From: a virus
IMG/VR virus record: IMGVR_UViG_3300037826_000058
Location: 55,095 to 119,094 of that record
Length of the DNA: 64,000 nt
Reading direction: 5' to 3' (one strand)
The notes beneath the pieces were generated by a model, which worked only from the letters and a program-made list of their open reading frames with translations, had not been told where the DNA came from and did no database searches. The translations under genes were made by a program, and so were the position numbers. Shown here piece after piece: positions 22,693 to 49,060 of the stretch. Position 1 is the stretch's first letter; each line of letters begins with the position of its first letter.

Positions 22693-22775
22693 GTCTTCCT
22701 CCGTGACTGTCCTCTCGCTTAAAGAGAGGGTTTGAGGTCTTTGCCCCTAGACGCCAGTCTGCGCCCAAGTAATTA

Positions 22776-22798: not shown

Positions 22799-22872
22799 GA
22801 ATAGGTACTCACCCCTATTAGGTATACGTAGGTACTGACCCCCACGTGGGTCTATATATATTTTTTAGGGGG

Positions 22873-23145
22873 CTATGGAGCTACAATCTCTGCTGGCTCC
22901 TCTTTTTCCCCAGCGTGCCTTTTTACACCGTGTACGGTGCGGGCATCTTCTGTGAGGAACTTTGCCCCACAGCGCCCGCACTCGTACAATTCGGTGTTTT
23001 CATCCGGCAATGGTTTGAACAACCCGTGCCGTAACAGTTTCTCATCGTTTCGTAAACCTTTCAGTTCAATGACTTGTCGCTGGTCTAATTGTTCACCAGC
23101 ATATCCAAACGACTTACTGGCATAGACCTTATCACCGATTGACAT
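22873..23145 (-). CDS. Small C2H2-type zinc-finger protein
   Basis: CGRCG...H....H. Confidence 0.65.
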   Translation of the reverse strand: MSIGDKVYASKSFGYAGEQLDQRQVIELKGLRNDEKLLRHGLFKPLPDENTELYECGRCGAKFLTEDARTVHGVKRHAGEKEEPAEIVAP

Positions 23146-23165
23146 TGCTCCTCCTATTAGGTTGT

Positions 23166-24134: not shown

Positions 24135-24149
24135 TATTATCCTCCGTTA

Positions 24150-24539
24150 CTACGCTGCCCTGGCTGGGCCACCTAACAGAACCATCTCGGCGTTCTCGCC
24201 GCTATCGGCTCCGACTACCACGACACCAGCTACATAGGCTGTAGTGTCGCTACCGGGGGTGAGCGCTGTGGCTGACCCGCGTGCGTTTGGGCCTACCAGA
24301 TTGCCAGCCGTAAGTGTTTCTCCGGCTACCACCTTGGAATGACCCAATACTCTTACCAGTGCCGCCCTGCCTGACGATGCAGGCTTGTTTTGCAAAATAC
24401 CAAGTGCCTGGTCTGTAGCAGCGTTGCACCGACTGACCTGCTCGTTGGTGCTGTCCTGTTCTACAAAGTAGTATTGGTAATCGCTCAAATCTCCTGCGGC
24501 TTTGGCATTAACGTTAATTCCGTCCTGTTGTTTTGCCAT
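24150..24539 (-). CDS. Capsid cement/decoration protein (DUF2190-like)
   Basis: AAGDLSDYQYYFV...ALGILQNKPASSG. Confidence 0.75.
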   Translation of the reverse strand: MAKQQDGINVNAKAAGDLSDYQYYFVEQDSTNEQVSRCNAATDQALGILQNKPASSGRAALVRVLGHSKVVAGETLTAGNLVGPNARGSATALTPGSDTTAYVAGVVVVGADSGENAEMVLLGGPARAA

Positions 24540-24541
24540 TA

Positions 24542-26158
24542 TTAGTCCTCCTGCTTAGGCGAACCGTTGCGGGTAACAGCCGCGTCATACTCGGCGTAGA
24601 TTTCTGGGTGGGCTTCTGCTACAGCCACCGTCGCCTCTGAAACGCTTGCCCCATGCTCTTTTTGGTGTTTCTCAACCAGTGCCTCAAACTTGACCACAGG
24701 GTCAGTTGGGGCGGGGCCACCACTACCCATCTCATCGAACAAACGACCCGTCTCATCAATATTTCCCATAGCTTCTAACAGAGACTCCAGCTCAGCATAG
24801 CGAGCCTTGTCTTCCGTGTCATCCGCGTCGTGGAAATACATCAACAGATCGCCACCATTCTCAACCGGCAGCCCAAGCTCCTCTGCCTTATCTGAGAATT
24901 CTTTTGCCCTTCTTTTGCGCTCAACCATCTTAATCTCTTCCGCGAACTTAGCCGCTTCAGCCTCAGCCTTTTCTTTCTCTTCTCGCAATGCGGCTACTTC
25001 TTCTTCCAGTTCTGTTACCTTGGCCTCGAAGTTGAATACACCGCTTTTAAGCTGCTCAGATAAGGCTTCAACATCAATCGACTGTTCGGGAAAGCGCTCA
25101 GATAGATGGTCAGCGATATTTTGGGCTAACTCTTCTACCTTGATGTCACTCATATCATCTTTCTCCCGATATTCTCCTACTTTGAATTTTTTCTTAGCGT
25201 CTTCGATACGTTTCTCGACAACGTTTTTACCTTTGTATGAAAAGTCTTCCTGTGCAAAGCGCGAGGATGCGTTTTGGACATGAGACTTGTCATGAATGGG
25301 ATAACGATAATTCACCGGGTCGGCAAACTGATCGTCGCTGAGGTCTTCCCACTTGGCGGGCTTGGTTAAATGCCCGTGTTCAAGAATGGCGATATTGTAT
25401 TTCTCAGAGCGAGTCTTCTGTGCTTCGTGCTTTTCCTCTGATTCATTGTTGCCAAACATATCTGAAAGGCGCTCGTAAGCGCGTCTTAACAAATCTATTG
25501 CTTTATCTTCTTCCCCTGTTTCCCACCCTTGATCGTCAGAGAAAATTGCTGTTGCACGCCCCAGACGCGGGCGAGGGGTAAGCGCAATACCAAGTGCTAC
25601 GTTGTCGTAGTAATCTCCATCCAGTGCCTGGTATCTTCTCAATCGTACTTCCGGTGAGGCGTAACGATAACCCTTGTCTTTAATCTCCTCGATTTTTTCT
25701 TCTCTGAAATGGGGTTTCCACTGAACCTCGTTTCCCGTGAACCTTAAGTCATCTATATATCCATAGACACCATATTCGTCACGGTGTAGGATATTAACCG
25801 GCAGGTCATAGTCGGGAATGTTATGCACCTGAAAGTTTGTTACCATCTCTTGCGCGTCTTTCTGTGTAAACTCTATCTTTTTCCCGTAGTGATAGACGGT
25901 TCCTACTGGAAAGTACAGATACCAACCGTCTTCACGCTCAGAGAATGGGACAAAATAAGTTACATCTTCAGCCTTTACCCACTTACCATCCTCTTTCTTG
26001 TAATTTTTCTTGATGACGCCCCACGCTTTCTTGAAAGCCTTTTCCTCACTATCGCCACTGTCTAATGCGCTGTTGACGACTTTAAGAAATTGCTTTTGTG
26101 CAGCTGTAGGAAGTGTTTTTACCCTATCGGGTAATTCAGAAATTTTAGAATATGGCAT
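24542..26158 (-). CDS. Head maturation protease/scaffold fusion with N-terminal ChaB-like domain
   Basis: MPYSKISELP...AWGVIKK (ChaB); H..YRYASPE...ALTPRP (Mu gpI-like protease); FADPVNYRYPIHD module; coiled-coil scaffold. Confidence 0.8.
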   Translation of the reverse strand: MPYSKISELPDRVKTLPTAAQKQFLKVVNSALDSGDSEEKAFKKAWGVIKKNYKKEDGKWVKAEDVTYFVPFSEREDGWYLYFPVGTVYHYGKKIEFTQKDAQEMVTNFQVHNIPDYDLPVNILHRDEYGVYGYIDDLRFTGNEVQWKPHFREEKIEEIKDKGYRYASPEVRLRRYQALDGDYYDNVALGIALTPRPRLGRATAIFSDDQGWETGEEDKAIDLLRRAYERLSDMFGNNESEEKHEAQKTRSEKYNIAILEHGHLTKPAKWEDLSDDQFADPVNYRYPIHDKSHVQNASSRFAQEDFSYKGKNVVEKRIEDAKKKFKVGEYREKDDMSDIKVEELAQNIADHLSERFPEQSIDVEALSEQLKSGVFNFEAKVTELEEEVAALREEKEKAEAEAAKFAEEIKMVERKRRAKEFSDKAEELGLPVENGGDLLMYFHDADDTEDKARYAELESLLEAMGNIDETGRLFDEMGSGGPAPTDPVVKFEALVEKHQKEHGASVSEATVAVAEAHPEIYAEYDAAVTRNGSPKQED

Positions 26159-26176
26159 AATCTATCCTCCGACAAC

Positions 26177-26227
26177 AAAAAACGGGTGCGAGATTTGTAA
26201 TCTCACACCCGCTTAGATTCAGGTGAG
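26177..26227 (-). promoter_or_regulatory. Terminator/antiterminator leader upstream of the head-tail operon
   Basis: GCGGGTGTGAGAT-TACAA-ATCTCGCACCCG-TTTTTT; upstream CTCACCTG can pair with the 5' arm. Confidence 0.6.
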
Positions 26228-26361
26228 CTTAGTTATATCATATCATTTGCATCGCGGCGTAGTTTCCGCGAGCTAAGAATTGTACGTTAGAAGTTTACTT
26301 TGGTGAGGTATCAATTGTCAAGGTTGGCGGTGATTGCACATAAAGATGACTAACGAATCGC

Positions 26362-26390
26362 TTGACAAACCTAGGTATATGGTGTATAAT
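26362..26390 (+). promoter_or_regulatory. Sigma70-type promoter
   Basis: TTGACA-17-TATAAT; ATG 6 nt downstream (leaderless). Confidence 0.85.
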
Positions 26391-26396
26391 TGCTGT

Positions 26397-26969
26397 ATGA
26401 AAAACCAAAAAGCCCATGTTCTGGCATTTAGTAGCGAAAGCGTTGAGTATTATACTCCCTCAGAAATCATCGAGGCTGCGCGGTCTTTGATGGGGGGAAT
26501 AGACCTCGACCCCGCCTCCTGTGTGGAGGCACAAGAGACTGTTAGGGCCAGAACGTTTTATACCCAACAGGACGATGGCCTTAAACAGCAATGGGAGGGG
26601 CGAGTCTGGCTTAATCCTCCTTATGGGAAGATTGGGAACGAATCATCTCAGGGGTATTGGGCCGAAAGGCTCATCGTAGAATATGATATGGGGAATGTTG
26701 GGGCGGCGTGTCTCTTGACGCGCTCCGCCTTGGGCTACGAATGGTACGAATCCCTGCTAGATCGACTACCTGTTTGCTTGTTTCGCAAACGAGTTGAGTT
26801 TGTCATCCCAGGGGGAGGCACCAAAGGCCCCAGTAAACAAGGGGTGTCGGTTTTCTATCTGGGAGAGAACAGAGCTGGCTTTGTAGAGCACTTCGGGGAA
26901 TTCGGAAGAATCATTTTCCCTGAGGATTATAAGGGGGGCAAGGATGTATGGCAAGCTAACCTTTGGTAA
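26397..26969 (+). CDS. Phage DNA N6-adenine methyltransferase (Dam-like)
   Basis: EYYTP, IDLDPAS, DDGL..W.GRVWLNPPY. Confidence 0.9.
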   Translation: MKNQKAHVLAFSSESVEYYTPSEIIEAARSLMGGIDLDPASCVEAQETVRARTFYTQQDDGLKQQWEGRVWLNPPYGKIGNESSQGYWAERLIVEYDMGNVGAACLLTRSALGYEWYESLLDRLPVCLFRKRVEFVIPGGGTKGPSKQGVSVFYLGENRAGFVEHFGEFGRIIFPEDYKGGKDVWQANLW

Positions 26970-27213
26970 GGTTGGTGCTGTTATTATGGTGGTGCTGTTA
27001 ACGATTTTCATCATAGGGGTATCAAATGTTTTCAGGGTACGAAGCCAAAGAGGAAAATGGCGCGTCGTAGTAATAGACAGCCAGGTGGTCTATTATTGTC
27101 AGAAACGAGAAAGCAAGACTGTTTTCAGAGATTGCCAGCAAGGGTTAACTTCTTACAAGTGGATAGATTTTGATAAGGATAGTGTCAACATCATGTTAGA
27201 GGGGGGGCAATGA
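26944..27213 (+). CDS. Membrane-anchored hypothetical protein
   Basis: N-terminal TM helix; RBS. Confidence 0.55.
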   Translation: MYGKLTFGKVGAVIMVVLLTIFIIGVSNVFRVRSQRGKWRVVVIDSQVVYYCQKRESKTVFRDCQQGLTSYKWIDFDKDSVNIMLEGGQ

Positions 27214-27581
27214 GCAACACGCTATTTGATACCGCGCTGGAAATTGCCAGCAAATACCGCGATACCCAAGAAAAGCTCATCGCGTTAGAAATGGATATGG
27301 TAACCCTGAGAGTAAAAGCTGAAAAATTCCAAACACGCGCAGTTAGCAATGGGTATCGAACTGGGTTGATTAACGACCGAAACTCGGACACCCGTGCAGC
27401 GGGGGAATCGTTGGTTTTGCAGAACGACCAAGCATACCAAACAGTGCTTGAACGTAAGGCTGGATTAGAAAGCGAGATAAAGAAAACAAAAGCCCTTTTG
27501 GACTACTGGCACAACGTGTTGATGATTCACCGGTCTGTTTTGTCACCAGATACATGGAGGGCAAAAAATGAACATAGCTGA
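27210..27581 (+). CDS. Hypothetical coiled-coil protein
   Basis: ATGA overlap; RBS. Confidence 0.6.
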   Translation: MSNTLFDTALEIASKYRDTQEKLIALEMDMVTLRVKAEKFQTRAVSNGYRTGLINDRNSDTRAAGESLVLQNDQAYQTVLERKAGLESEIKKTKALLDYWHNVLMIHRSVLSPDTWRAKNEHS

Positions 27582-27882
27582 CTACGCCCTTTCACACCAT
27601 CTCCACAGGTTGTCTGACTCTCTCTATTTGCCGTATGTGGAGAGAGCAATAGAAGACCCGCACACGGGGGCCTGTCGATGTTCTAGGTGTGAAGGTATAG
27701 TATATGGTCTTAAATACCTAGTGTGGTATAACAACGGTACAGGGTGGTACGACTGCGCGTCGGCTCACCCCAGTCTAGAAGATGCTATACAAGCAGCTAG
27801 GAAACAAGGATGCTCTCGCATAACTCGTGTGGGGAAGGATGGGAACGACAGTGATGGTGTAATCTGGAGGAAAAATGAATAA
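27568..27882 (+). CDS. Hypothetical protein
   Basis: GGAGG RBS. Confidence 0.55.
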   Translation: MNIADYALSHHLHRLSDSLYLPYVERAIEDPHTGACRCSRCEGIVYGLKYLVWYNNGTGWYDCASAHPSLEDAIQAARKQGCSRITRVGKDGNDSDGVIWRKNE

Positions 27883-28018
27883 TGATGACAAGGTGTTTAG
27901 GGTGTTGTTTGTGGCGTTTGTTCTAATCTTTTTGTGCGCCCTAGTCAGTACAGTAGTCACATATGGCGGCGGGGCGTATGTTCTCGTTCGCGTTCTTAGT
28001 AATCTAGGACTTTGGTAA
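27875..28018 (+). CDS. Small membrane protein (47 aa)
   Basis: GGAGG RBS; hydrophobic stretch; below the ORF-track size cutoff. Confidence 0.5.
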   Translation: MNNDDKVFRVLFVAFVLIFLCALVSTVVTYGGGAYVLVRVLSNLGLW

Positions 28019-28019
28019 C

Positions 28020-29108
28020 ATGATTAAAGTTGAAAGAGAGAAACTGTATTCAGCGGTAGAAATGCTTAAGGACGTAGTGTCAAAACGTCCTATCGTACCC
28101 ATTTACGGGCATATCTTAATCAGGGTCGAGGAAGGAGAGATGCGCCTCACCGCAGCCTCAGGGACAATGGGAGCGCATTTCTGGATTGATGATATAGAAA
28201 CAGATGGTGAAGAAGTAGAAGCAACGGTGCCAGTCAAAGAGGTTCACGACTGGCTTAACACACAACAATCTTCGGAATTTGTTACTGTCATTATAGAAGG
28301 TGATAGGGTCACACTAAGCACTGACAAAGCACAGGCGAATTTGCAATCTATGAACACCGAGCATTTCCCCAACGTATCAACAAAACCAGATGGGGAAGAC
28401 ATCGTTATTGGAGAGGAGGATTTCAAACGAGCAGTTGGTCAAACCATCTTCGCTACAGTTGACGATATTGCCCGCCCTATGTTGTCAAGCATCTTGGTTC
28501 AATCGACAGATAACGGGAAGCTGTGTTTCCAGGGTGCGGACGGTAATAGACTTTCCGCGACTTACATCGAATATCACGGAGGCGACTTTCGTGCCTTAGT
28601 ACCCAGAGAGACAATCAGGGTTGTAAGCCGTGCTTGTATGGGTACGGTTCGGATAGGATGGGCTGGTGGTAACATAGTATTTACGTCTGGTGATTGGGTG
28701 CTAAGCTCGCAAACTACAGAGCAGAAATATCCAGACTTTTCACCCTTCACAGAACGCAAGGAGGAAGACGTAAACACCATAGTGGAAATAGGAAAAGGTG
28801 CAAAAAACCAGTCAAGGGCTGTAATGGTCTTCGCAAAGCAGAACGACAATCTACTCAAGGTGAAGATAACTGCAGACCAAATAATCCTGTCGTCGTATGT
28901 AGAAGTGGGTTCGGGAGAGGCTAGCTTTCCTTGTTTCATTCACAAGGGGGATGAGTTAGAGTTCATGATAAACGGAGCGTATTTTGTTGACGCTCTCAAG
29001 GCAGGAGACAACCTGTCGCTCTGGATAGTTGACGAAACAGAAGCGGTTCAGTTTGTGAATGAAGACCAGACATTTGTTCATTTCATTATGCCGATGCAAC
29101 TCAGATAG
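28020..29108 (+). CDS. dnaN: DNA polymerase III beta sliding clamp
   Basis: 362 aa; RPMLSSI, GADGNRLS, KYPDF, INGAYFVDAL, C-terminal IMPMQL. Confidence 0.9.
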   Translation: MIKVEREKLYSAVEMLKDVVSKRPIVPIYGHILIRVEEGEMRLTAASGTMGAHFWIDDIETDGEEVEATVPVKEVHDWLNTQQSSEFVTVIIEGDRVTLSTDKAQANLQSMNTEHFPNVSTKPDGEDIVIGEEDFKRAVGQTIFATVDDIARPMLSSILVQSTDNGKLCFQGADGNRLSATYIEYHGGDFRALVPRETIRVVSRACMGTVRIGWAGGNIVFTSGDWVLSSQTTEQKYPDFSPFTERKEEDVNTIVEIGKGAKNQSRAVMVFAKQNDNLLKVKITADQIILSSYVEVGSGEASFPCFIHKGDELEFMINGAYFVDALKAGDNLSLWIVDETEAVQFVNEDQTFVHFIMPMQLR

Positions 29109-29118
29109 GGAGGGGGGT

Positions 29119-29670
29119 ATGTTTAAGCGCGTGTTGATGTTGGTATTGCTGTTGTGGGTTGTTTCCTGCGTCCCCGAAAAAGAACCAGTTGAGAGGGCAA
29201 GCGCGGGGGTAGAGGGTGAAGTCCTGGTATCACCCGAAACAGACAACGAGCATGGGTGGAGCGTAGGGTCAAAAGTCCGAGTGAGTACCGAAACATATAC
29301 TTTAGAGGTGAAGATGATAGACTCTATGGCTTCCCACTCTGAAACAGAAGCGAGTGGTTCTGTTTACGGGTGGGGTAGCGGGGGATATGGTTCCTACCGC
29401 ATGGAACAAAACGGAAAGGGGATTATGCCTGTGGAAGTCAAGAGCGTCTCACCGGATTTCCACAACGTCGAGGTTGGTGACTTGATTATCATCAAGGTTA
29501 CTGACCTTAAGGCTATGGCTATTCCAACAGGAGCAGTTTTCACAGTGGTGTGTAACGAGGACGTAGAAGTGGTTAGTCCTAATGTGTCTGGGCAGGTCTT
29601 GACCACGGACAGGCTCACATACGAACTAGACGATTGTAGGTTAAAGTCACCGGAATTTAAGTTGGAGTGA
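29119..29670 (+). CDS. Putative lipoprotein
   Basis: MFKRVLMLVLLLWVVSC lipobox-like. Confidence 0.65.
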   Translation: MFKRVLMLVLLLWVVSCVPEKEPVERASAGVEGEVLVSPETDNEHGWSVGSKVRVSTETYTLEVKMIDSMASHSETEASGSVYGWGSGGYGSYRMEQNGKGIMPVEVKSVSPDFHNVEVGDLIIIKVTDLKAMAIPTGAVFTVVCNEDVEVVSPNVSGQVLTTDRLTYELDDCRLKSPEFKLE

Positions 29671-29682
29671 ACCACGGCAAGC

Positions 29683-29721
29683 AAAAAAAGAGGGAGGGGG
29701 TGTCATACCCTCTCCCTTTTT
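29683..29721. terminator. Bidirectional terminator between convergent operons
   Basis: A-run, GGGAGGGGG...CCCTCTCCC, T-run. Confidence 0.75.
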
Positions 29722-29745
29722 GCTTGTCAGTCAGATCAGTGCCAT

Positions 29746-30030
29746 TTACTTGTCGCTCCCCCTTGCTTTACGGATAGCAGCCTCTACTTTGTCGTTGCAC
29801 GAATATACACCGTCTGACCACTCACGTTCTTCAAAGAACCATTCGGGCAGATTGCAGGCGAGGGCTGCAATAACCTCACAAACCTCCAGTAAATCAGGTG
29901 CCGCAGCTTGTAATCGTGCATTTGCTTCCGTTTTGGGCAAGGGGTTATTGCTCCTGGATGGATAGACAACCCAGCTATCGAGCGCGTTGTCGTTACTCGC
30001 CCGCCACGGCCCCCTTGTGTGTTTACTCAC
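29746..30030 (-). CDS. Conserved phage hypothetical protein
   Basis: KHTxGPW...EANARL.AAAPDLLE motif; GGAGG RBS. Confidence 0.7.
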   Translation of the reverse strand: MSKHTRGPWRASNDNALDSWVVYPSRSNNPLPKTEANARLQAAAPDLLEVCEVIAALACNLPEWFFEEREWSDGVYSCNDKVEAAIRKARGSDK

Positions 30031-30050
30031 TTGCCACCTCCTTTACTTAA

Positions 30051-30908
30051 TCAAATCAACACCATTTGTCTTGCGTCTTTCTCATCTTTTGCTTTGTCCC
30101 GATGCATGGCTCGCATAATCGCTGGCCTCGACCAGCACCTTGCTAGGTTTTTCCATTTCCGTGAATATTCTATAAAGTGATCTGGGGGCTGATAAAGCTG
30201 TGCGAATGGTAATCCACCCAGCTCCCATACCTGTTCTAGTCTAGACTCGGCCTCATTGATAGTCTCATCACCATATGCTATCAGGACATACACACGCAGC
30301 TTGTTCCGTCCCAAAGCCGATAATTTATCAAGTGCCTTTTCCAATGGATGCAGGGCCGCTTCTGTGTCAGCGGCTAGGAATAATTCTTTAACGGTGATGC
30401 TCTGTAACTGTTCAACAATCCAGTCATCAACCAACCTTGCGTCTATGCCCCCAGCGAATACTGCCGCCTTTTGCGTTTTGAGCATTTCAATCACGCCACG
30501 AATATGTGATTGACTTGCCTGCAGAAGATTGTTGTCCTGTATAATATACCCTGGTGTAAAATCCTTAATCTCCCGTAATTTGCCTTCACGTTTTGGTACA
30601 AAGCACCATGGGCAATTATTGTTACACCCCCTAGTGGTGAACGTGACTCCGTGTTTTACATACAAACCAGGGGTGAAATTATGGCAGGGGCTATCGAAAG
30701 CAGGCCCGCCTATAAGCACATCTATGTCATTATAGGCATTGCTCCATGCTTGATATAGGCGTTTTGCCCTATCAATATCCCAGGTGAATGTTGCTGATAT
30801 ATGCACCTGGTCTACTTCTGGTGGTAATAGAGGGGGGTAATCGTCAAAAACCAAGGGGTCTTGAGGGGTCATCGACGTTACTCTAGGGAAAACTCTTGCT
30901 ATTTTCAT
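30051..30908 (-). CDS. Radical SAM protein
   Basis: TTRGCNNNCPWC (CxxxCxxC). Confidence 0.8.
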   Translation of the reverse strand: MKIARVFPRVTSMTPQDPLVFDDYPPLLPPEVDQVHISATFTWDIDRAKRLYQAWSNAYNDIDVLIGGPAFDSPCHNFTPGLYVKHGVTFTTRGCNNNCPWCFVPKREGKLREIKDFTPGYIIQDNNLLQASQSHIRGVIEMLKTQKAAVFAGGIDARLVDDWIVEQLQSITVKELFLAADTEAALHPLEKALDKLSALGRNKLRVYVLIAYGDETINEAESRLEQVWELGGLPFAQLYQPPDHFIEYSRKWKNLARCWSRPAIMRAMHRDKAKDEKDARQMVLI

Positions 30909-30921
30909 GGTTGCAATTTCA

Positions 30922-32115
30922 CTACATACAATCAAACAGGCTTTTCTGAACTGGTTTTTCGTAGTGATGCTTCAGCCTCGCCTCGCCAATCAGGACGTAG
31001 CTCGGTTCTAATTCAATCCCTATGAAATCACGGTTCTCTTGGATGCACGCTACTCCTGTAGAGGCACTACCAGCAAAGGGGTCTAGCACAACACCACCGC
31101 TTGGCGTTTTGGTGAGACGTACCAAATACCTCAAAATGGCAACCGGCTTGACCGTGGGGTGAATGTTTCCCCTTGCTTTCTTCTCGTCTGTTTCTAGCCA
31201 TTCCTCTCTAGTTGCTGGTCGCCACTCTATAGAAGTGTCTTCGTCTTTAATCCAGTAAAGGTGGTCGCACCCCTCATTCCTCTCTGATGAAGATGCCTTA
31301 GGTGTGTAGAAGAAGCGTGCGGCGGTGCCTGTGTCGCCGTGATACTTGCTGTTTTCAGGCTTTCCTTTTGCCCATCCGCCATATCCCCCACTGCTGTCAT
31401 TCTTGTTGCCCTTGGGTGACCACGGCCCAGGTCTCTCCCCACTCTGCTCTGCCAAAACCTTAACGGGACAATCGGGGTAGCAGTCCCAATCGGCTACAGT
31501 TTCTTTGCCATCGCTATCCACAAAGCTGGGCTCCCAGGCGTCGGGTCTTACTTCTTGCCCTCTACTCTCTTGGTCGGTATAGTGCATCGACTTACCCCCA
31601 GGCCCATTCGGGTATCCGCTATGCCCCTCAACCTTTCGTGTCCCACGCCTCTGGCATCCTGGTATCACCCCGTCCCCACCACAGTATGGGCATTCGGGCC
31701 AATCACCGCCGCAGAAGCAGGGCTGGTCTAGAACGTGACTTAGGATAAGGTTCGCGGGCCATCGACCTTCCGGTTTAAGCTCCAATACGTCTTGGTGCCG
31801 CCCAGCCTGTTGATATTTTCCGCCTCCACTCATAACGTCTTTATCATCTTGGGCACGCATCATTTTACACTCTTCGTTGTGTGCAATCCTCCCCCCATCA
31901 ATCCATAGTCCAGAAACCCCCCACTTGAGCGCATTGTTGACGAACGTCCCGTCACGCGGGTTCACCGCCACGATGATTGGCTCCCACGCTGGCTTGAGGG
32001 CAACATTGAATCCCTCTAGTTGCTTGAGAATATCCGGCTTGATGAACTTGCCATCATCGCGTCGCTCAATCTCTATCGTCTGACCCGCCACTTCAACTTG
32101 TATTTTTTCTGTCAT
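30922..32115 (-). CDS. DNA N4/N6 methyltransferase, C-terminal (SAM-binding) half
   Basis: ALKPAWEPI, GRWPAN, NIHPTVKP, VLDPFAGSASTG; no DPPY. Confidence 0.85.
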   Translation of the reverse strand: MTEKIQVEVAGQTIEIERRDDGKFIKPDILKQLEGFNVALKPAWEPIIVAVNPRDGTFVNNALKWGVSGLWIDGGRIAHNEECKMMRAQDDKDVMSGGGKYQQAGRHQDVLELKPEGRWPANLILSHVLDQPCFCGGDWPECPYCGGDGVIPGCQRRGTRKVEGHSGYPNGPGGKSMHYTDQESRGQEVRPDAWEPSFVDSDGKETVADWDCYPDCPVKVLAEQSGERPGPWSPKGNKNDSSGGYGGWAKGKPENSKYHGDTGTAARFFYTPKASSSERNEGCDHLYWIKDEDTSIEWRPATREEWLETDEKKARGNIHPTVKPVAILRYLVRLTKTPSGGVVLDPFAGSASTGVACIQENRDFIGIELEPSYVLIGEARLKHHYEKPVQKSLFDCM

Positions 32116-32137
32116 CGTGTTGTGACTACTCCCCTCG

Positions 32138-33265
32138 CTAAAGCAGGGGGCTTCTAGGGCTTTTGCCCAGGGACGATAGCCCTCGTCCCAAAATGTTTAG
32201 ACTAGCATTAAGATCACGATCAATCTCAAGACCACAATGAGGACACTTATGGACACGTTCGGACAGAGGCTTTTTGACAATCTTGCCACAACCAGAACAC
32301 ATCTGCGACGTGTTACGTGGGTCAACAGTGACGACCGTCCGCCCGGCCCATTCTGCCTTGGCTTGGGTCAATCTCACCAGTTGTCCCCACGCAGCGTCGG
32401 AGATGCTCTTGTTCAAGCTGCGCCAATTGCCTTCCTGTATGTCCTGAATGTCCAATGCCTCAAATGCAATGAATTGAAATTCGTTCACCAGTCGCCTACT
32501 CAGCTTGTGCGCGAAGTCTTTGCGACGATTAGCGATGCGTTGGTGAATGTGCTCTACCACCCGCTTCTGCTTGCGATACTCAGGCGTGCCTTTGTCACAC
32601 TCCGAGAGCTTGCGTTGTGCTTTAGCAAGGGCTTTCTCGTCTTTGCGGAAGAAGCGGGGGTTGTCAATCTGCGTACCGTCGCTGAGGGTAGCGAAGTGCT
32701 TACAGCCGAGGTCAATGCCAACTGTCTTGTGCGTGGGTTCAAGCAGTTCTGGTTCAAACTCTACCACGAAGCAAGCCCACCAATTGCCGAGGGCGTCTCG
32801 CTTAATATGAAGACGCTTGACCTCTCCCTCGATGGGGCGGTGAAGCACAATCTTAACATTGCCAATCTTGGAGAGGTAAAGTCTATCATCGCTAACTATC
32901 TTGAACCCGCTTTGCGGGAACGTAAACGACTTATACCAATTACCCTTGAAGCGCGGATACCCTGGATTCTCACCACCATCCTTACAACGTCGAAAGAAAT
33001 GCTGAAAAGCCAAGTCAACCCGTGTGCAAGCATCCTGCAAGACTTGAGAGTGTGCTTGTTTCAACCAAGGGTGCTCTGCTTTCCAACCAGGAAGCATATT
33101 GATTGTATCGTACAGCGAAAGCGATTCTTCTCGTTCTTCCCAGGCTTCCTTGCGCACTTCAAGCGTTTTGTTGTAGACCCATCGGCAAGCATCTAAGACG
33201 CTCTGCATAGCTGTGCGCTGTGCAGAACTAGGATAGAGCCGATACTTCATTGTCTTGGTAGCCAT
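32138..33265 (-). CDS. tnpB: RNA-guided endonuclease TnpB
   Basis: KYRLYP HTH, VGIDLG, FEAL, TSQMCSGCG..CPHCG..DRDLNAS; RuvC D-E-D present. Confidence 0.95.
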   Translation of the reverse strand: MATKTMKYRLYPSSAQRTAMQSVLDACRWVYNKTLEVRKEAWEEREESLSLYDTINMLPGWKAEHPWLKQAHSQVLQDACTRVDLAFQHFFRRCKDGGENPGYPRFKGNWYKSFTFPQSGFKIVSDDRLYLSKIGNVKIVLHRPIEGEVKRLHIKRDALGNWWACFVVEFEPELLEPTHKTVGIDLGCKHFATLSDGTQIDNPRFFRKDEKALAKAQRKLSECDKGTPEYRKQKRVVEHIHQRIANRRKDFAHKLSRRLVNEFQFIAFEALDIQDIQEGNWRSLNKSISDAAWGQLVRLTQAKAEWAGRTVVTVDPRNTSQMCSGCGKIVKKPLSERVHKCPHCGLEIDRDLNASLNILGRGLSSLGKSPRSPLL

Positions 33266-33272
33266 ATTAAAT

Positions 33273-33300
33273 ATTATACCACGTTTTATGTGTCTGTCAA
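33273..33300 (-). promoter_or_regulatory. Sigma70-type promoter for tnpB
   Basis: TTGACA-16-TATAAT with extended -10; ATG 7 nt downstream. Confidence 0.7.
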
Positions 33301-33398
33301 GTACATAAAACGCCATTCATCTCCTCGCTAAAGCAAGGAGTTTTCTGGCTTAACCTCTATAATTAGGATGATTGAGACACAGTGCTAAAGGGTTGTCG

Positions 33399-34178
33399 AT
33401 GCTTGAAAAGACCAAACTTGAAGAACTTTACATTGAGCAACAGATGACTGGTACAGAGATTGCCACCCTTGTTGGTGTCAAGTCCTCTCAAACCATCTAC
33501 AACTGGCTCGACAAGTATGGAATACCACGCCGCCAAGGACGCAGGGCGCAACGCCCTGTCACCCCCAGCAAGGAAACCTTGCAAGAACTTTATGTGGAAC
33601 AGAAATTGAGCATAGACCAGATTTGGCGAATGCTCGGTTCGTCTGAGTCCAGTGTCTCCAAGTTGCTTGACCAGTACGGTATCCCTAAACGCGCACGATG
33701 GGAGCAAATGGCTGGATGGAACAAGGGGCAGCCACTTCCCGAAGAGCAACGCCAGCATCTTAGCGAGATTGCCAAGCAACGTACTGGCCCAGACAGTTCG
33801 CGCTATGGCGTCGAGCTTTCGGATGAAACCAGACAGAAAATCTCCGATAGTCTCAAAGGGCGATACCGTGGCCCCGACAATCCGCAATGGAATGGCGGTA
33901 GTAGCGATGAGCGCCACAAGTGGCATAGCCGCTATGAGTACAAGGAATGGCGTGATGCAGTGTTCAAACGTGACGGATACGCCTGCCAGATGTGCGGTAA
34001 GCCCAGCGAGGGCGATATAGAAGCTCACCATATCTATCCCTGGTGCGACTATCCCAGCAAGCGATTTGACGCTGGCAATGGAATTACACTTTGTCAAGAA
34101 TGCCACCTCTCAATCAAAGGCATAGAGCTTGAGTACGCAGAGCAATTCTTGAGTATCATTCGTCAACCCACTCCGTGA
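33399..34178 (+). CDS. Free-standing HNH homing endonuclease with HTH and NUMOD3-like repeats
   Basis: SDETRQKISDSLKG, NPQWNGG, RDGYACQMCG..EAHHI..NGITLCQECH. Confidence 0.88.
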   Translation: MLEKTKLEELYIEQQMTGTEIATLVGVKSSQTIYNWLDKYGIPRRQGRRAQRPVTPSKETLQELYVEQKLSIDQIWRMLGSSESSVSKLLDQYGIPKRARWEQMAGWNKGQPLPEEQRQHLSEIAKQRTGPDSSRYGVELSDETRQKISDSLKGRYRGPDNPQWNGGSSDERHKWHSRYEYKEWRDAVFKRDGYACQMCGKPSEGDIEAHHIYPWCDYPSKRFDAGNGITLCQECHLSIKGIELEYAEQFLSIIRQPTP

Positions 34179-34650
34179 ACTCATAGCCCTGCTCTTCTAT
34201 CGCTGTCTCTAGCTTCTTGCGCAACCCCTTCTCTAGGCTATACCCCTTCGGAAACCCCTGGCCCTGCACCCAAGCCATCACACACCCTGGATAGTGCAAA
34301 TCCAGATAAGCCCTCTTTTGCTCTGCATCTAAACTGTCTAAAAATGCACTTCGCTGAAAGTCACCGCTATGCAAATGAGTTATCGTGTCCCGAATCTCCC
34401 ACCCCGCGTCCTCAATCGCCACCATTAGACGGTGGTGTGTACGCGTCCCACCGAAGGCTAGTAAGAACGCTCCCGGCTTGGCAACCCTGCGAACCTCTTC
34501 CCAGAAGGCAACCCCTGGAACACCGTGATCCCAATCCCTCCCCATAAAATGTAATCCGTATGGGGGATCAGTGATAACGGTGTCTACGCTGTTTTCTTCC
34601 ATCTCTGAAAGAACGTGTAAGCAATTCCCTGTATGTAGTTTGTATTCCAT
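34156..34650 (-). CDS. DNA N4/N6 methyltransferase, N-terminal (catalytic DPPY) half
   Basis: SVDTVITDPPYGL..FMGRDWD, FGGTRTHHR..IEDAGWEIRD, GFPK. Confidence 0.85.
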   Translation of the reverse strand: MEYKLHTGNCLHVLSEMEENSVDTVITDPPYGLHFMGRDWDHGVPGVAFWEEVRRVAKPGAFLLAFGGTRTHHRLMVAIEDAGWEIRDTITHLHSGDFQRSAFLDSLDAEQKRAYLDLHYPGCVMAWVQGQGFPKGYSLEKGLRKKLETAIEEQGYEFTEWVDE

Positions 34651-34896
34651 CTATCTATCGGTAGACACTCTCTCTAACAAGTCGAAAAAGTAAACAACTT
34701 CTCCGTGTGGGGCGTCCTCAGCACACACCCAGTTGTTTCCGACAACATAGGCTTCATCGTATCCCAGAACCTTACAGGCTCGGTTTGCCAGCACCAGTTG
34801 CCCCATTGCAGCGCCAAGCAATATTAGGGAACCTACAAATATGACCAACAACATGATTTCAGGCATTTTATTCTTCAAAGTAAATCCTCCATTCAT
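34651..34896 (-). CDS. Small membrane protein
   Basis: One TM helix. Confidence 0.5.
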   Translation of the reverse strand: MNGGFTLKNKMPEIMLLVIFVGSLILLGAAMGQLVLANRACKVLGYDEAYVVGNNWVCAEDAPHGEVVYFFDLLERVSTDR

Positions 34897-35419
34897 CTGG
34901 ATATTCTACCACAACCACTCTACCCCTGGGCTTTTTAGGTTCAAACCTAAGAGACATACCAGCCTCATGGGGCATACGGTTTCCTTTACGGTTGTTACAA
35001 TACCTGCAACAACATGCTACGTTCCCCCAGTTGGTCTTACCGCCTCGGCTCTGGGGAATGATGTGCTCTATAGTAAAATCAGAATGGCGAAGGGGGCGAC
35101 CGTCATCATCCAGATCACCCACCCGCCTTCCACAGTAAACGCATTGCCATTTGTCTCTGCGGAAAACGTTTCGCCTTGTAAACGGTACTGATTGCTGGGG
35201 GGCGTCGTGGTAAACACTTAGCATCAATACGCTCGGTACTTCATACACATCATCAACGGTATTTAGTTTTGCAGCCACACCGTCGATTGCAAGCACAGGC
35301 ACGTTGCCTTCATCGTCCTCTCGCATCATTATCTCGATAGCATCTCTTACGGTGATGATGCGAAAAGGGCGTCCTGTCCTGTCGAGCAATAAAACTTTAC
35401 GGTTTAACTTTTCAGTCAT
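34868..35419 (-). CDS. HNH endonuclease (McrA-like)
   Basis: RRNVFRRDKWQCVYCG..TIEHIIPQSRGG..WGNVACCC..CNNRKG. Confidence 0.9.
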   Translation of the reverse strand: MTEKLNRKVLLLDRTGRPFRIITVRDAIEIMMREDDEGNVPVLAIDGVAAKLNTVDDVYEVPSVLMLSVYHDAPQQSVPFTRRNVFRRDKWQCVYCGRRVGDLDDDGRPLRHSDFTIEHIIPQSRGGKTNWGNVACCCRYCNNRKGNRMPHEAGMSLRFEPKKPRGRVVVVEYPDEWRIYFEE

Positions 35420-35446
35420 GCTTACTCCCCCCCCAAAAAAAATGAA

Positions 35447-35518
35447 TACCCCCAGCTGGACTCGAACCAGCATCTACGGTTTAGGAAACCGTGGCTCTTT
35501 CCATTGAGCTATGGGGGC
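35447..35518 (-). tRNA. tRNA-Arg(CCT)
   Basis: Cloverleaf; loop TTCCTAA. Confidence 0.88.
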
Positions 35519-35524
35519 ACTGCA

Positions 35525-35800
35525 TCACGAATACAAAGGATTAAGTTCCTCTTCCTCTTCCTCTGCAACCCATACCGCAAACCTCATTGTTTTGTTGAGG
35601 TTACGGAAGGAAACATCACCGTCATACGGCGCGGTGTCTCGTTCCCATCTCCCTTGTGCGTTCACCAGCACAACACATCTCATGTCGTACTTGGTGATAT
35701 ACTCTAGGGCGTCCTGTGGCGTCCTAAATACCAACGACCCTTCCTTTTTGATGATGGTCTCGTGGTCACCCACAGCGTCGGAACAGTAACTTGCTAGCAT
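35525..35800 (-). CDS. Hypothetical protein
   Basis: TAATG coupling to the upstream gene. Confidence 0.55.
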   Translation of the reverse strand: MLASYCSDAVGDHETIIKKEGSLVFRTPQDALEYITKYDMRCVVLVNAQGRWERDTAPYDGDVSFRNLNKTMRFAVWVAEEEEEELNPLYS

Positions 35801-36645
35801 TATTCCCCCTTATACTTCTTGGCCTTCTCCAGGATACTTGGAATGGCTTCTTCCATATACGGTTTCATTTTGTCGTAACGATAGGTTCTATCGGTAAATC
35901 TTCTGTTTGTTATTGCCTTGAGGAATACATTATTTACCTCTTCCATGTAGGAGCCATAGATGTGGTAGCTATCGGCCTGATGAACATAGCGCCCCACGCG
36001 AACCTCACGCCCAGCATGCTCGCTGACTCGATCAGCGATTTTTTCCTGTAACTTCACAAATGCGAACATATTCATAAAAGCGGCTTTGTAGGCATCGTTT
36101 GAACGCATTCGGACGTTGGTGTTCAAATACCACACCCCATCCGTATCAGGGAGAATACGACACCAGATGCTTTGTAAGCACGCTGGGTCGTGGCAAAACG
36201 GGTCTTCCCAAGGTTTCCAGGTAATCGCCTGGGCGCGACGCGTGTAGGGAGCTTGGGCTAGCTTGCACGCCATTACTTCTATTTGATTGTAAAGCTCATC
36301 AATCCCCGGTACAGAGTATGTAAACAAGCGCTCGTGGTACGTATACTCCCACCGAGTATCGTTAGGGTCATCAGGGTCGCGAACCCAGTGGTCTTTAATG
36401 CCATCCCTGACTTCCATTGTGTACTCTTGTAGGTCTTGTAATCCGCATGGTATCATGCGGCTTATCATGGGTTCAGCTAGGGGGCTGTCTACCACGATAG
36501 TCATTGTAGCGTCTAGCGATGGGGGGTCTTCAGGTTTATCATACTCCGTTTGGATTGGGGTTCCGCTATGATAAACCTTTAAGACAGACTTCTCCCAAGC
36601 AGAAGGAAGATTACTCCCCTGAACGCGAAGAACTGGTATATACAT
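35800..36645 (-). CDS. Thymidylate synthase family protein (short type)
   Basis: YTYHERL, TRRAQA, PACLQ, MRSND..AFMN, SYHIY. Confidence 0.85.
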   Translation of the reverse strand: MYIPVLRVQGSNLPSAWEKSVLKVYHSGTPIQTEYDKPEDPPSLDATMTIVVDSPLAEPMISRMIPCGLQDLQEYTMEVRDGIKDHWVRDPDDPNDTRWEYTYHERLFTYSVPGIDELYNQIEVMACKLAQAPYTRRAQAITWKPWEDPFCHDPACLQSIWCRILPDTDGVWYLNTNVRMRSNDAYKAAFMNMFAFVKLQEKIADRVSEHAGREVRVGRYVHQADSYHIYGSYMEEVNNVFLKAITNRRFTDRTYRYDKMKPYMEEAIPSILEKAKKYKGE

Positions 36646-36650
36646 TAATA

Positions 36651-37838
36651 TTATTTCCCCTTGTAGTGATTGCATCCCATTTCAGGGTAAACTACCCTGT
36701 GAATAGTAGGAACACCCCATCCAAATGTATTGTCCTTTCCTGGTTCTCCTAGGTCACAAGCACTGTCTTTAAGCGCATCGTAAACCTCGTCAGGGGAGAA
36801 CTCTGGATATAAAGACTTGATTACTCCAGCCGCCGCAGAAACGTGTGGGGTCGCCATTGATGTTCCCGATTTATACCACGTTTCCGCGGGGGACGTGTAG
36901 GCATACACACAAAACGAAGGTGCTACAAAATCTAATTTCTCACCGTAATTACTGAAGTATGCGAGGTCTAAGTCTTCATCGATCCCGCCTACCGATACGA
37001 CACTATCAAATCCAGCGGGATATACTAATACATCAATATGATGATTACCAGCCGCCGCCACTGGTAACACACCATTTTCCCTTGCACGCTTCAGTGCGTT
37101 TTCCACCATTGACCACGCTTCGCTTTGAGGGTCTCCATATCCCCCAAACGACATAGACATTACATCTACGTCGTTCTCGGTACACCAATCGATTGCCAAA
37201 ATGATTGCCCTGAGGGAGCACCTTCCTCCCTCACAGACTTTTAGATGTACCCCCTCACAGTGCGGGCAAATCCCTGCAATTCCCGTCTCATTATGAGGGG
37301 CGGCACTAATGCTTTGCACATGGTAACCATGTGTATCATCGTCAGTGGTGTCAGCATTCCCCGTGAAATAGTTCCAGCCCGTAATGTCATTGGTGGGCTG
37401 GTCTTCAATTGGTGACCAACCACTGTCCAGAAACGCAATACGGGCCACTTGGGTATAGGAACGCGTGTAAACAGACGGAACTTCTTCTACCCCCATCATC
37501 TGAGGCCCGTACTGGAGCTCTATGTGTTCGTCGTTTAGCGTAGGCCTTGGTGTGGGGGTAGGAGTAGGACGTGTTGGTACAGGAATAATCTCACTTGCTT
37601 TGAAAACCAACGGGAGGTAGTGGTAGTAACGCCCTTCTTGCTGAGTATAGATTTCTGGCAAGGGAAAACATTCTTGTAAGCGAATAACTTCCTTCTTTTC
37701 AACAAACCGATACCCATACCGAGCATTGCTGTCTTCAACCAACACATAATCGTCATCGATAAACCCTCCATCCGCCTTAACAGGGGTAAAAATCAAGAGG
37801 GTTACTAAGACAGCCAAAACCAAAGATAACCTGCGCAT
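36651..37838 (-). CDS. Secreted subtilisin-like (S8) serine protease
   Basis: Signal peptide; LDSG, HGYHV, AAAGN, GTSMATPHV. Confidence 0.92.
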   Translation of the reverse strand: MRRLSLVLAVLVTLLIFTPVKADGGFIDDDYVLVEDSNARYGYRFVEKKEVIRLQECFPLPEIYTQQEGRYYHYLPLVFKASEIIPVPTRPTPTPTPRPTLNDEHIELQYGPQMMGVEEVPSVYTRSYTQVARIAFLDSGWSPIEDQPTNDITGWNYFTGNADTTDDDTHGYHVQSISAAPHNETGIAGICPHCEGVHLKVCEGGRCSLRAIILAIDWCTENDVDVMSMSFGGYGDPQSEAWSMVENALKRARENGVLPVAAAGNHHIDVLVYPAGFDSVVSVGGIDEDLDLAYFSNYGEKLDFVAPSFCVYAYTSPAETWYKSGTSMATPHVSAAAGVIKSLYPEFSPDEVYDALKDSACDLGEPGKDNTFGWGVPTIHRVVYPEMGCNHYKGK

Positions 37839-38122
37839 ATTACGCCTCCCCAGATAGCAACCGTCAACAGTTGAATGAATAAAGCTACAGACGCGGTAAC
37901 CCACCACCCCCACAAAATATCAGGGTAGCGTCGCTTTATTAGCTTCCCCAGCCCATAAAGAACCACGGGAATAATAACCTTAACAGCCACGAGGGGAAGA
38001 TACCCATAAGATTGCCAAACCGAGACAGCAAGGGGGTTAGCCTCAGCACCAACCCCCCACGCGTAGGTGACAATTAAGTCAACTGCTTGCAAGAACAAGT
38101 ATAATAGAGTTAATCCCACCAT
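37805..38122 (-). CDS. Membrane protein (DUF5658-like)
   Basis: D...T...GAEANPL; three TM helices. Confidence 0.65.
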   Translation of the reverse strand: MVGLTLLYLFLQAVDLIVTYAWGVGAEANPLAVSVWQSYGYLPLVAVKVIIPVVLYGLGKLIKRRYPDILWGWWVTASVALFIQLLTVAIWGGVICAGYLWFWLS

Positions 38123-38589
38123 TGCTCGAACCCCTTCAACAGGCTAATAATCCTCTCTTTGTCTTCTTGCCTCTTTATCTCCGAAATGTACCGTGCTATG
38201 CGGTATACACGCTCGGCGGCTTCTTGCCTTCCTGGGCTGTTGACCTTGGAGAATTCTGGCCCAGTATATTGGTATAGCCCGTTCTCTATCGGCTCGAACC
38301 CCATAGAAATATCCCCAAAATGCTCCTCGAAGGATATAGACCTCAATGTTTCGTCTAGGTAATCGTCTGCTATGTATCTATCGATAGCATCAGCCAGCTC
38401 TTCAAGTTCGTTGGCAATATCGTCGGCTGATGTTGATAAACCGCTTTCCCTGAAAGAACGAGCCATCTTTCGAGACTTAAAGGATATAATCTCGAAAAGA
38501 TAAGCCCAATCCCAGTCTCTGTCTCCCCAGATAACAGGAGCCCAAGCGATTAGGTTCTTTATCCCTCTAAATATCTTATCAAACAACAT
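38110..38589 (-). CDS. Conserved phage hypothetical protein
   Basis: W.PVIW.DRDWD...WWD C-terminus. Confidence 0.65.
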   Translation of the reverse strand: MLFDKIFRGIKNLIAWAPVIWGDRDWDWAYLFEIISFKSRKMARSFRESGLSTSADDIANELEELADAIDRYIADDYLDETLRSISFEEHFGDISMGFEPIENGLYQYTGPEFSKVNSPGRQEAAERVYRIARYISEIKRQEDKERIISLLKGFEQWWD

Positions 38590-38794
38590 TGGCCTCCGAG
38601 TTATCACCAACGACGTTTCCGTCTCCGGTGATACTAACATTGCGAGGTTGTGCGAGCGCAAGCGCGGAATTCTTGGGGTATAGTTCACCGCACTTGGGGC
38701 AAGCCGTGGGCTTTTTCATAACAGCATATCCATTCCCCTCTTCAGCATGACTTGCATAGAACTTGGCTTTACATTTGTCGCATACAACAATCAT
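38579..38794 (-). CDS. Zinc-ribbon protein
   Basis: CDKC...CPKC; GGAGG RBS. Confidence 0.55.
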   Translation of the reverse strand: MIVVCDKCKAKFYASHAEEGNGYAVMKKPTACPKCGELYPKNSALALAQPRNVSITGDGNVVGDNSEANVV

Positions 38795-38805
38795 TTCAGA
38801 CCCTC

Positions 38806-39354
38806 CTAGCTTGTCCAATTAGCGTCTTCTTTAACGCGTTTATCCCAACACTTCTCACAGTAAATACCAGCAAAGTGTCGCCGGTTCTGTGCTTCACTAG
38901 CATCTATAAGCTTACCACAGGTGCTACAATGCACCTGACCTTCTCGCCACTTCTGCGTGGCATCGAGAATACGGTTTACAGTCTCTTTTGGCATTTTCTC
39001 GTCAGGGTCAGATAGAAATCTGACTCCCACCAACTTTGTCTGTGTAGGTGACCACAGCGTCAGTCCCCACAAATTGGTATAGACGTATCTTGACTTGGGC
39101 TTATCCCCCAGCATCTCAAACCCATCGAATTCCTCCGACAAACGATGCTCTTCCGTCTTTCCTGGTATGACCATCTTCTGGGTCACCATCAGGGGGTATT
39201 CCCTATGCCCATCCCTAAACCTTAATCTAGGATTATCATAGGGGTCTCCAATAGCGGCCCTCAATCTTCTTTCCACCTTGGGCAGTTCTTCGGTGAACCA
39301 CTCCATATCCAATCGGTGAAGGTCGTTTCTATCAATAATAACCTTAGCGTCCAT
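38806..39354 (-). CDS. Hypothetical protein with C-terminal Zn finger
   Basis: CSTC...CEKC; GAGGAGG RBS. Confidence 0.6.
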   Translation of the reverse strand: MDAKVIIDRNDLHRLDMEWFTEELPKVERRLRAAIGDPYDNPRLRFRDGHREYPLMVTQKMVIPGKTEEHRLSEEFDGFEMLGDKPKSRYVYTNLWGLTLWSPTQTKLVGVRFLSDPDEKMPKETVNRILDATQKWREGQVHCSTCGKLIDASEAQNRRHFAGIYCEKCWDKRVKEDANWTS

Positions 39355-39377
39355 AATCACCTCCTCACTCATTGCCA

Positions 39378-39406
39378 ATTATACACCAAAACCCCCTGGC
39401 TGTCAA
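39378..39406 (-). promoter_or_regulatory. Sigma70-type promoter
   Basis: TTGACA-17-TATAAT. Confidence 0.85.
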
Positions 39407-39624
39407 GGGGGTTCAAAAAAAATTAAGAGGGTTTTTGCTTTTCTCTAACCGCCTCTTCAAGAGTACGATCATTCAGACAGTCATTACATACGTCACACCC
39501 TGCTTGGATAGGTTTAACTTTATCACATCTAGAACACCGTTTTTCTATGTACGATGCTCTATAAATCCCTTCAATTGTATGGTATTTTCTTTTCACACTC
39601 CCCCCTGTTTTCTTAACCTACAGA

Positions 39625-48836: not shown

Positions 48837-48918
48837 TGGAGGTGGCGGGACTCGAACCCGCGTCCCCACCAGTGCCCTTCGGCTTCAAGGTGGGTCGATT
48901 TCCCTTTTCGACACCCCC
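48837..48918 (-). ncRNA. Mini-tmRNA: tRNA-like domain only, no tag reading frame
   Basis: GGGGGTG..TCGAC-CCACC..GGTGG-GGAC-GCGGGTTCGAGTCCCGC-CACCTCC-A; G3:U70. Confidence 0.75.
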
Positions 48919-48985
48919 GTGACTGTTCCCTCGCAAGGGCGAGGGCTTTTAGGGCTTTTGCCCACGGACGCCAGTCCACGTCCCC
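48919..48985 (-). ncRNA. Orphan TnpB right-end/omega-RNA scaffold-like segment
   Basis: Colinear with the tnpB right end at 32122-32189; both end in AGTCAC. Confidence 0.7.
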
Positions 48986-48987
48986 AG

Positions 48988-49060
48988 AGCGGAAGATGAG
49001 ATTTGAACTCACAACCTCCTGCTTGGCAAGCAGGCGTTCTACCAATTGAACTACTCCCGC
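48988..49060 (-). tRNA. tRNA-Gly(GCC)
   Basis: Loop TTGCCAA. Confidence 0.9.

Follow-up and report, generated by a model that had tools for sequence, protein, structure and literature searches.

The omega-RNA (reRNA) scaffold of ISDra2 is one of the closest described counterparts of the RNA module analysed here. In the account of PMC10097598 it is 116 nt long: its stem 1, with a loop that pairs just ahead of the guide, is followed by stems 2/3, by a stem 4 with a UUUA tetraloop, and then by the transposon end and the guide; sequence 5' of stem 1 is reported there to be dispensable. Omega-RNAs are also described apart from their nuclease genes: activity in trans has been reported for standalone omega-RNAs (PMC10691335), and the PATE-like elements of the IS200/IS605 family, which are non-autonomous, are reported to encode omega-RNAs (bioRxiv 10.1101/2023.03.14.532601). 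The module that we describe, an orphan right end of 67 nt in the tRNA gene array of a phage, repeats the ISDra2 order of first stem with a loop that pairs before the guide, middle stem, last stem, transposon end and guide position. However, the scaffolds of this family measure only ~67-70 nt, the TAM is TTAT instead of the TTGAT of ISDra2, and the orphan has neither a tnpB gene in front of it nor the UUUA loop, which is usual in the family. With the standalone omega-RNAs and PATEs it shares a protein-less right end, an intact scaffold and a compatible TnpB in the same genome. These elements, however, keep their left end, are mobilised and often occur in several copies; the orphan is a single copy that lacks a left end and is fixed between two genes of tRNA type. 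Two further comparisons concern this position. The homing endonuclease gene segB of T4 is reportedly located in the tRNA gene cluster of that phage and would likewise be a selfish nuclease system lodged among phage tRNA genes, but there a protein, SegB, recognises the site, while the RNA guide part alone is present here. In engineered tRNA-gRNA arrays a guide-RNA scaffold is placed between tRNA processing sites and the guide stays on the scaffold; the orphan is flanked by tRNA processing sites in the same way, but here RNase P would remove the guide. Protein-less omega-RNA scaffolds as such are already known, and the orphan is notable as one that is immobile and flanked by tRNA processing sites.

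The analysed DNA, referred to as the window, comprises the final 64 kb (64,000 nt) of a 119-kb virus record (IMG/VR record IMGVR_UViG_3300037826_000058), for which the collection estimates a completeness of 91%; all coordinates are those of the window. ARAGORN recovers 34 tRNA genes, every one on the minus strand, and the spacing of most of these array tRNAs is only 2-5 nt. A spacer of 68 nt separates tRNA-Gly(gcc) (48987-49060, minus strand; ARAGORN, and 73 bits with the Rfam tRNA model) from an 82-nt tRNA-like gene (48837-48918, minus strand), and it is filled entirely by the orphan (48919-48985, minus strand), which we recognise as a right end with a complete omega-RNA scaffold from BLAST, from a covariance model and from its fold. 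The tRNA-like gene, absent from the ARAGORN calls in the window, scores 35.4 bits with the Rfam tRNA model and 43.6 bits with the tmRNA model (cut-off 47), and combines tmRNA-type acceptor and T arms without a tag region. Its final 28 nt are identical to the 3' ends of three genes that look like complete tmRNA genes and lie in large, unrelated viral contigs (L004, L005 and L006; judged by eye from a 5' GGGGGTG...TTTCGAC about 300 nt upstream), and this identity supports its designation as a mini-tmRNA. The tRNA-like gene begins at the base after the orphan, and its 5' end thus occupies the guide position. The original prediction had the orphan end at +1 of the mini-tmRNA, which is confirmed by an orphan 3' end at 48919 and a tRNA-like gene that starts at 48918; the sequence quoted there is located at 48984-48919 (minus strand), and one further G matches, to 48985.

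The orphan is a homologue of the last 17 codons and the right end of a resident tnpB element, with 79-81% identity. BLAST inside the phage genome aligns it with the resident right end at 32122-32189 (minus strand) with 79% identity over 66 nt and an E value of 5.8e-10, so that its claimed alignment with a tnpB right end 16.8 kb away holds. These two are the only copies in the 119-kb genome by both BLAST and covariance model R1, and a 14-mer common to them occurs twice in the window, against 0.02 occurrences expected. TnpB relatives of 40-60% identity were collected from 4 viral-contig loci and from 19 loci in bacterial and archaeal genomes, the latter mostly Chloroflexota, Armatimonadota and neighbours. 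They have a common design of the 3' end: two hairpins (1 and 2) precede a conserved UAGAAGCC, after which come hairpin 3, in most cases with a UUUA loop, and GGAGUAGUCAC with unrelated flank behind it. Model R1 was built from 15 family right ends with the orphan left out. It gives the resident right end 77.8 bits and the orphan, in a match over the full length, 44.2 bits with an E value of 1.2e-10, while the next-best match within the 64-kb window reaches 12.3 bits; a scan of the whole genome returns the same two matches. Among 85 family modules the nearest to the orphan is the resident copy (80.6%; median 66%). The original term 'omega-RNA-like' was correct as to the relationship with the scaffold but too weak in its wording, as the orphan is a member of the family. 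In Rfam, no family matched the orphan except for a chance match on the opposite strand (E 9.5), and none matched the resident right end. A doubled right end was observed in a Chloroflexus MAG element (L095 2098-2216), where two tandem right-end-like modules follow tnpB, the first one truncated.

The resident element (32122-33358, minus strand) is a tnpB-only member of the IS200/IS605 family. Its right boundary is given by comparison with a relative of the phage (see below), and its left boundary is inferred from a TTAT at 33359-33362 (minus strand). A left-end hairpin at 33321-33340 (minus strand) resembles the right-end hairpin. The TnpB ORF of 392 aa (32138-33316, minus strand) carries the Pfam domains OrfB_IS605, Cas12f1-like TNB and HTH_OrfB_IS605, and matches ISDra2 TnpB structures with an E value of about 3e-60 over residues 20-385. 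The right end with the omega-RNA scaffold occupies 32122-32189 (minus strand); the loop of a hairpin contains the stop codon of the TnpB ORF, and the element terminates in GTCAC at 32122. Stretches reading GIDLG, AFEAL and DRD are present in the alignment to the top match, 9yyg, an AI-designed RNA-guided nuclease that provides the sole residue-level alignment shown for this protein. We take these stretches to be the seats of the RuvC acidic residues, and with a motif set that looks intact the resident TnpB is apparently active. The ATG at 33265 is its probable start, since it fits the starts of homologues better than the ATG at 33316. A TTGACA/TATAAT pair lies inside the element just before this ATG (33273-33300, minus strand), and if promoter and start are both used, the tnpB message would be nearly leaderless. 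No match to a Y1 transposase was found in the phage record at E values up to 1, and the resident element is therefore non-autonomous.

The orphan is predicted to fold into three hairpins (minus-strand coordinates): hairpin 1 at about 48984-48965, whose loop holds the 5' strand of a pseudoknot, hairpin 2 at 48963-48952 and hairpin 3 at 48945-48928, followed by the pseudoknot 3' strand and the terminal TCAC at 48925-48919. The minimum free energy of the fold is -30.6 kcal/mol (z -2.84), and 1 of 200 shuffled sequences folds equally well. The third hairpin of the resident copy is complete in the covariance-model alignment, and the earlier statement that all three hairpins are preserved is borne out by the fold of the orphan and by this alignment of both copies. 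Covariation across the family supports the three hairpins together with the pseudoknot, in which the hairpin 1 loop pairs with GUAGUC before the end. In 16 sequences and 24 pairs, 92.6% of the cells are paired, compared to 66.7% in shuffles (none of 500 reaches the observed value) and 40-46% with slid partners, and 19 of the 24 pairs show changes on both sides. The pseudoknot helix is 96.9% paired in the same sequences, with three of its six pairs changing on both sides; a 3-bp long-range helix to the last bases, proposed by RNAalifold, was rejected in favour of this covarying pseudoknot. When RNAalifold was applied to 230 nt of 14 elements, no conserved structure appeared in the 160 nt upstream of hairpin 1. 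The order of the structural elements is that of the ISDra2 omega-RNA, which argues that the 67 nt of the orphan are the entire scaffold. Further support comes from viral copies without TnpB, which keep just this module: a left-end-type hairpin stands shortly before hairpin 1 in 9 of 19 such loci inspected by eye (L158, L161, L162, L164, L168, L178, L179, L195 and L199), in a layout of left-end hairpin, short linker, 70-nt scaffold and no protein. Judged from their sequences, these nine loci are PATE-like elements retaining the scaffold module only. One of them, L199, resembles an in-frame internal deletion that fuses the start codon to the last tnpB codons. The family thus gives a very compact omega-RNA scaffold of ~70 nt in which all helices and the pseudoknot are supported by covariation, and which may interest those trimming TnpB guides.

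Of the 23 pairs in the resident scaffold, the orphan retains 21, and the chance of retaining that many under 10-14 random substitutions is 0.044 to 0.006. Five of six pseudoknot pairs are kept, one of them by a compensatory double change from A-U to G-C; one G-U pair has become A-U, and hairpin 3 is a perfect 7-bp stem. This perfect subterminal hairpin and the GTCAC end at 48919 are the terminal features that have been kept. The hairpin 1 stem and hairpin 2 are the same in orphan and resident, though widely variable across the family. The orphan departs from bases that are invariant in 15 members: UAGAAG reads UAAAAG, and the UUUA loop is lost. Its 44.2 bits are below the scores of all compact full-tnpB modules in five bacterial genomes (52.1-80.2 bits) and lie within the range of viral modules without hairpin 1 (41.5-45.1 bits), a set that was retrieved with a pattern favouring high scores. 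A bacterial element with full tnpB (G004, 52.1 bits) likewise has UAAAAG and a non-UUUA loop, so the changes in the orphan need not be disabling. In its former coding part, as read from the alignment, four of seven changed codons are synonymous and the other three conservative, which suggests that much of the divergence arose while the ancestor was still an intact element.

Apart from the scaffold, nothing of the element was recovered at this locus. No further tnpB fragment exists in the genome, where tblastn gives just a 23-residue tail match at the orphan itself; the orphan does not overlap a tnpB 3' end and is abutted by tRNA-Gly instead. Upstream on the minus strand there is no left-end-like (hairpin-3-like) match, and tRNA-Gly ends 1-2 nt before hairpin 1. 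Without a left end, a transposase or a further copy the orphan cannot transpose. A composite element of left end, tRNA cargo and right end was considered and rejected, because the upstream minus strand is devoid of a left-end-like hairpin. A 44-nt repeat (40079-40122 and 63837-63880, plus strand; also G000:C1:316-341) ends in a hairpin like the left-end hairpin of the resident element. Read on the minus strand, the repeat stands immediately before +1 of tRNA-Cys and before the ATG of an ORF, and its 21-nt hairpin recurs without change in the right-end hairpins of a different IS in an Anaerolineaceae MAG (G002). The repeat could be either a promoter element of the phage or the relic of a left end; we do not claim it as an IS end, as BLAST aligns the hairpin only (15-21 nt, 90-93% identity, E 0.1-1.6).

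Right ends without TnpB are common debris in this IS family. In five bacterial genomes that hold the family, R1 matches with at least 1.4 kb of upstream sequence (7 contig-end matches excluded) amount to 23 modules, 16 of which have a full tnpB, one a partial tnpB, two only the last ~40 codons and four none. The viral contigs were counted with a family pattern that gave 58 matches in 56 loci. Here 41 modules have at least 1.4 kb upstream, with 20 full tnpB genes, 3 tails only and 18 modules with none; two of the latter (L170 and L171) have no R1 match and are probably chance matches to the pattern. A full tnpB is accordingly missing from 7/23 modules in bacterial genomes and from 21/41 in viral contigs. 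Solo or truncated right ends are thus a frequent kind of remnant, but the orphan differs from such debris in having its cut precisely at the hairpin 1 base and in lying inside a tRNA operon. In none of the 58 viral modules of the family did the 400 nt upstream or the 300 nt downstream contain a tRNA, which led us to reject the idea that the family prefers tRNA genes in general.

The surroundings of the orphan were also sought in other genomes. Exact-pattern scans with the tRNA-like gene (a 30-mer in viral contigs and a 25-mer in metagenome contigs) gave no match. Likewise, a 22-mer of the neighbouring spacer was without a match in viral contigs, and its two metagenome matches (L118 and L119) were discarded as chance matches with no BLAST similarity to the genome. 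Among 80 loci listed for the neighbouring FkbM-like protein, no viral relative exceeds 37% identity. Six sequencing runs contain parts of the stretch, all of them DNA and all labelled as tidal flat metagenome; four of these yielded mostly tRNA look-alikes of other organisms and short identical pieces of the phage, none spanning the orphan and none showing a variant. The literature search brought up no report of orphan omega-RNAs within tRNA arrays of phages; the supplements of published work may list standalone omega-RNAs.

A consensus sigma-70-type promoter (TTGACA-17-TATAAT, 12/12, with TG) is found by pattern match at 49423-49395 on the minus strand, within the array between tRNA-Asn and tRNA-Ala(ggc) and ~410 nt upstream of the orphan. 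A pattern search revealed no terminator-like site on the minus strand from this promoter to 48100. With a promoter upstream and no terminator, the orphan is most likely part of a tRNA precursor that would run in the order tRNA-Ala, tRNA-Trp, tRNA-Gly, orphan, tRNA-like RNA, tRNA-Ile and onward. No CCA is encoded by tRNA-Gly(gcc), and by analogy with known tRNA maturation its 3' processing would set the 5' end of the orphan RNA. Together, 3' processing of tRNA-Gly and RNase P cleavage at the tRNA-like gene would free a guide-less scaffold of ~67 nt.

We consider it rather probable that the orphan is a right end left stranded by a second ISDra2-like element of the IS200/IS605 type (tnpB-only or PATE-like), diverged from the resident one, and that it probably has no function. 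The ancestor, a member of the family with roughly 20% divergence by then and perhaps only a short PATE, would have inserted directly 3' of a TTAT, as elements of this family all do; this TTAT would have stood right in front of the tRNA-like gene, and such an insertion explains why the right end abuts +1. The left part, with its left-end hairpin and with tnpB if there was one, would later have been deleted up to the 3' end of tRNA-Gly, leaving the RNA-coding module alone, that is, three hairpins and the pseudoknot. Transcribed from the 49423-49395 promoter within the tRNA precursor, this remnant would be cut out by the processing of its two neighbours as a guide-less RNA of ~67 nt, probably with no selected role, and its persistence would reflect that an intergenic position within a tRNA array can accommodate it. 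The relic insertion offered as one option in the original prediction is in fact well supported: the orphan is a true right-end homologue, it has no tnpB fragment, left end or transposase, and such debris is frequent. This origin would also imply that the phage lineage was invaded at least two times by ISDra2-like tnpB elements.

Several observations count against an inert relic. The structure-preserving divergence, with 21/23 pairs kept, a compensatory change and a perfect hairpin 3, could reflect continued selection on the RNA; it could equally predate the stranding, when the ancestor was still active, as the four synonymous changes among seven altered codons would suggest. The end-point of the deletion falls within 1-2 nt of the hairpin 1 base and leaves the very unit that PATE-like derivatives keep, which for random loss from a 1.2-kb element would be a coincidence, though less of one if the ancestor was a short PATE. 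Moreover, an apparently active resident TnpB is available as a partner, and the trans-acting standalone omega-RNAs reported in PMC10691335 offer, by analogy, a precedent for its use. The cut at the hairpin 1 base and the intact folds keep a role in trans with the resident TnpB alive; taken as guide and decoy jointly, the other option of the original prediction, we regard such a role as unlikely. As a guide cassette, which by itself appears less likely still, the orphan would depend on some precursor escaping RNase P, and TnpB would load it with ~16 nt from the 5' end of the tRNA-like gene as guide. The nuclease would then cut co-infecting relatives that carry the empty allele, with TTAT directly before the tRNA-like gene, and recombinational repair would copy the orphan allele and the neighbouring tRNA genes, resulting in a homing drive without a nuclease gene of its own. 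The scaffold is complete and well folded with its pseudoknot kept, a strong promoter (by pattern match) lies upstream, and the hairpin 1 stem and hairpin 2 are the same as those of the resident, which makes the two scaffolds probably cross-compatible. TnpB has been recently mobile among relatives of the phage, in one of which the guide of the element matches an empty site here, and both standalone omega-RNAs acting in trans (PMC10691335) and omega-RNAs encoded by PATEs (bioRxiv 10.1101/2023.03.14.532601) have been reported. However, RNase P is expected to sever the guide at +1, where the acceptor and T arms provide a good substrate, and the guide bases are paired within the tRNA-like fold. The orphan has also lost a G that is invariant in the family, scores low with the model and is single-copy and immobile, and pattern scans of viral and metagenome contigs found neither a genome with the empty allele nor a second target. 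If the orphan did serve as a guide cassette, its allele of the tRNA array would be driven through the phage population, and any use in trans would make it a natural guide-RNA scaffold delivered by tRNA processing and a guide-only selfish element.

The other part of such a role, a decoy in which the processed 67-nt scaffold binds and titrates TnpB and so damps the nuclease during infection, is very unlikely in our view. It is true that tRNA processing on both sides would yield precisely a guide-less scaffold, and that this scaffold resembles the resident one. Against it, no benefit is known, as the predicted targets of the resident TnpB are empty sites only, which are lacking in a clonal infection; the TnpB and omega-RNA literature examined contained no precedent, and the orphan is single-copy and departs from conserved bases. 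A distinctly unlikely possibility is that the hairpins, whatever their origin, were retained as a co-opted spacer that helps its neighbours, tRNA-Gly and the tRNA-like RNA, to fold or to be processed: helices have been kept while bases related to transposition drifted, but most tRNAs of the array stand just 2-5 nt apart, and no spacer is needed. A chance resemblance between GC-rich hairpins, for which nothing more than the short length could be put forward, is refuted by the E value of 5.8e-10, by 44.2 against 12.3 bits with an independent model and by the 14-mer expectation of 0.02; its probability is practically nil. The stranded right end remains our preferred explanation.

Mobility and TAM of the resident element can be read from G001 (19,951 bases), the only close relative found, which is 97-99% identical to the phage across window positions 20172-39560. 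Its copy of the element is 99% identical to the resident one and inserted at a different site, and the two copies diverge directly after GTCAC. The site occupied in G001 is empty in the present genome, which reads TTAT (39561-39564, minus strand) followed immediately by the flank of the G001 copy. This comparison fixes the right boundary and defines TTAT as the TAM, as had been proposed earlier, and the occupied site in G001 next to the empty site here indicates that the element moved recently. The guide of the G001 copy, that is, the flank after its right end (L117 1-470), matches the empty site here with TTAT before it. Two co-occurring phage variants are thereby predicted targets of each other's TnpB homing, and a copy elsewhere in G001 whose guide matches an empty site here is an arrangement in which RNA-guided homing could naturally take place between phages that co-infect a cell.

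The surroundings of the resident element deserve a final remark. A DNA methylase gene is apparently split into an N-terminal piece (34156-34650), which covers positions 1-80 of Pfam N6_N4_Mtase, and a C-terminal piece (30922-32115) covering positions 141-218, both on the minus strand. Between the pieces lie an HNH endonuclease gene (33372-34178, plus strand) and the tnpB element, and G001 has a different insert of ~1.2 kb in this interval (L117 6911-8119). The split-methylase interval (window 30922-34650) looks like a hot spot for selfish elements.
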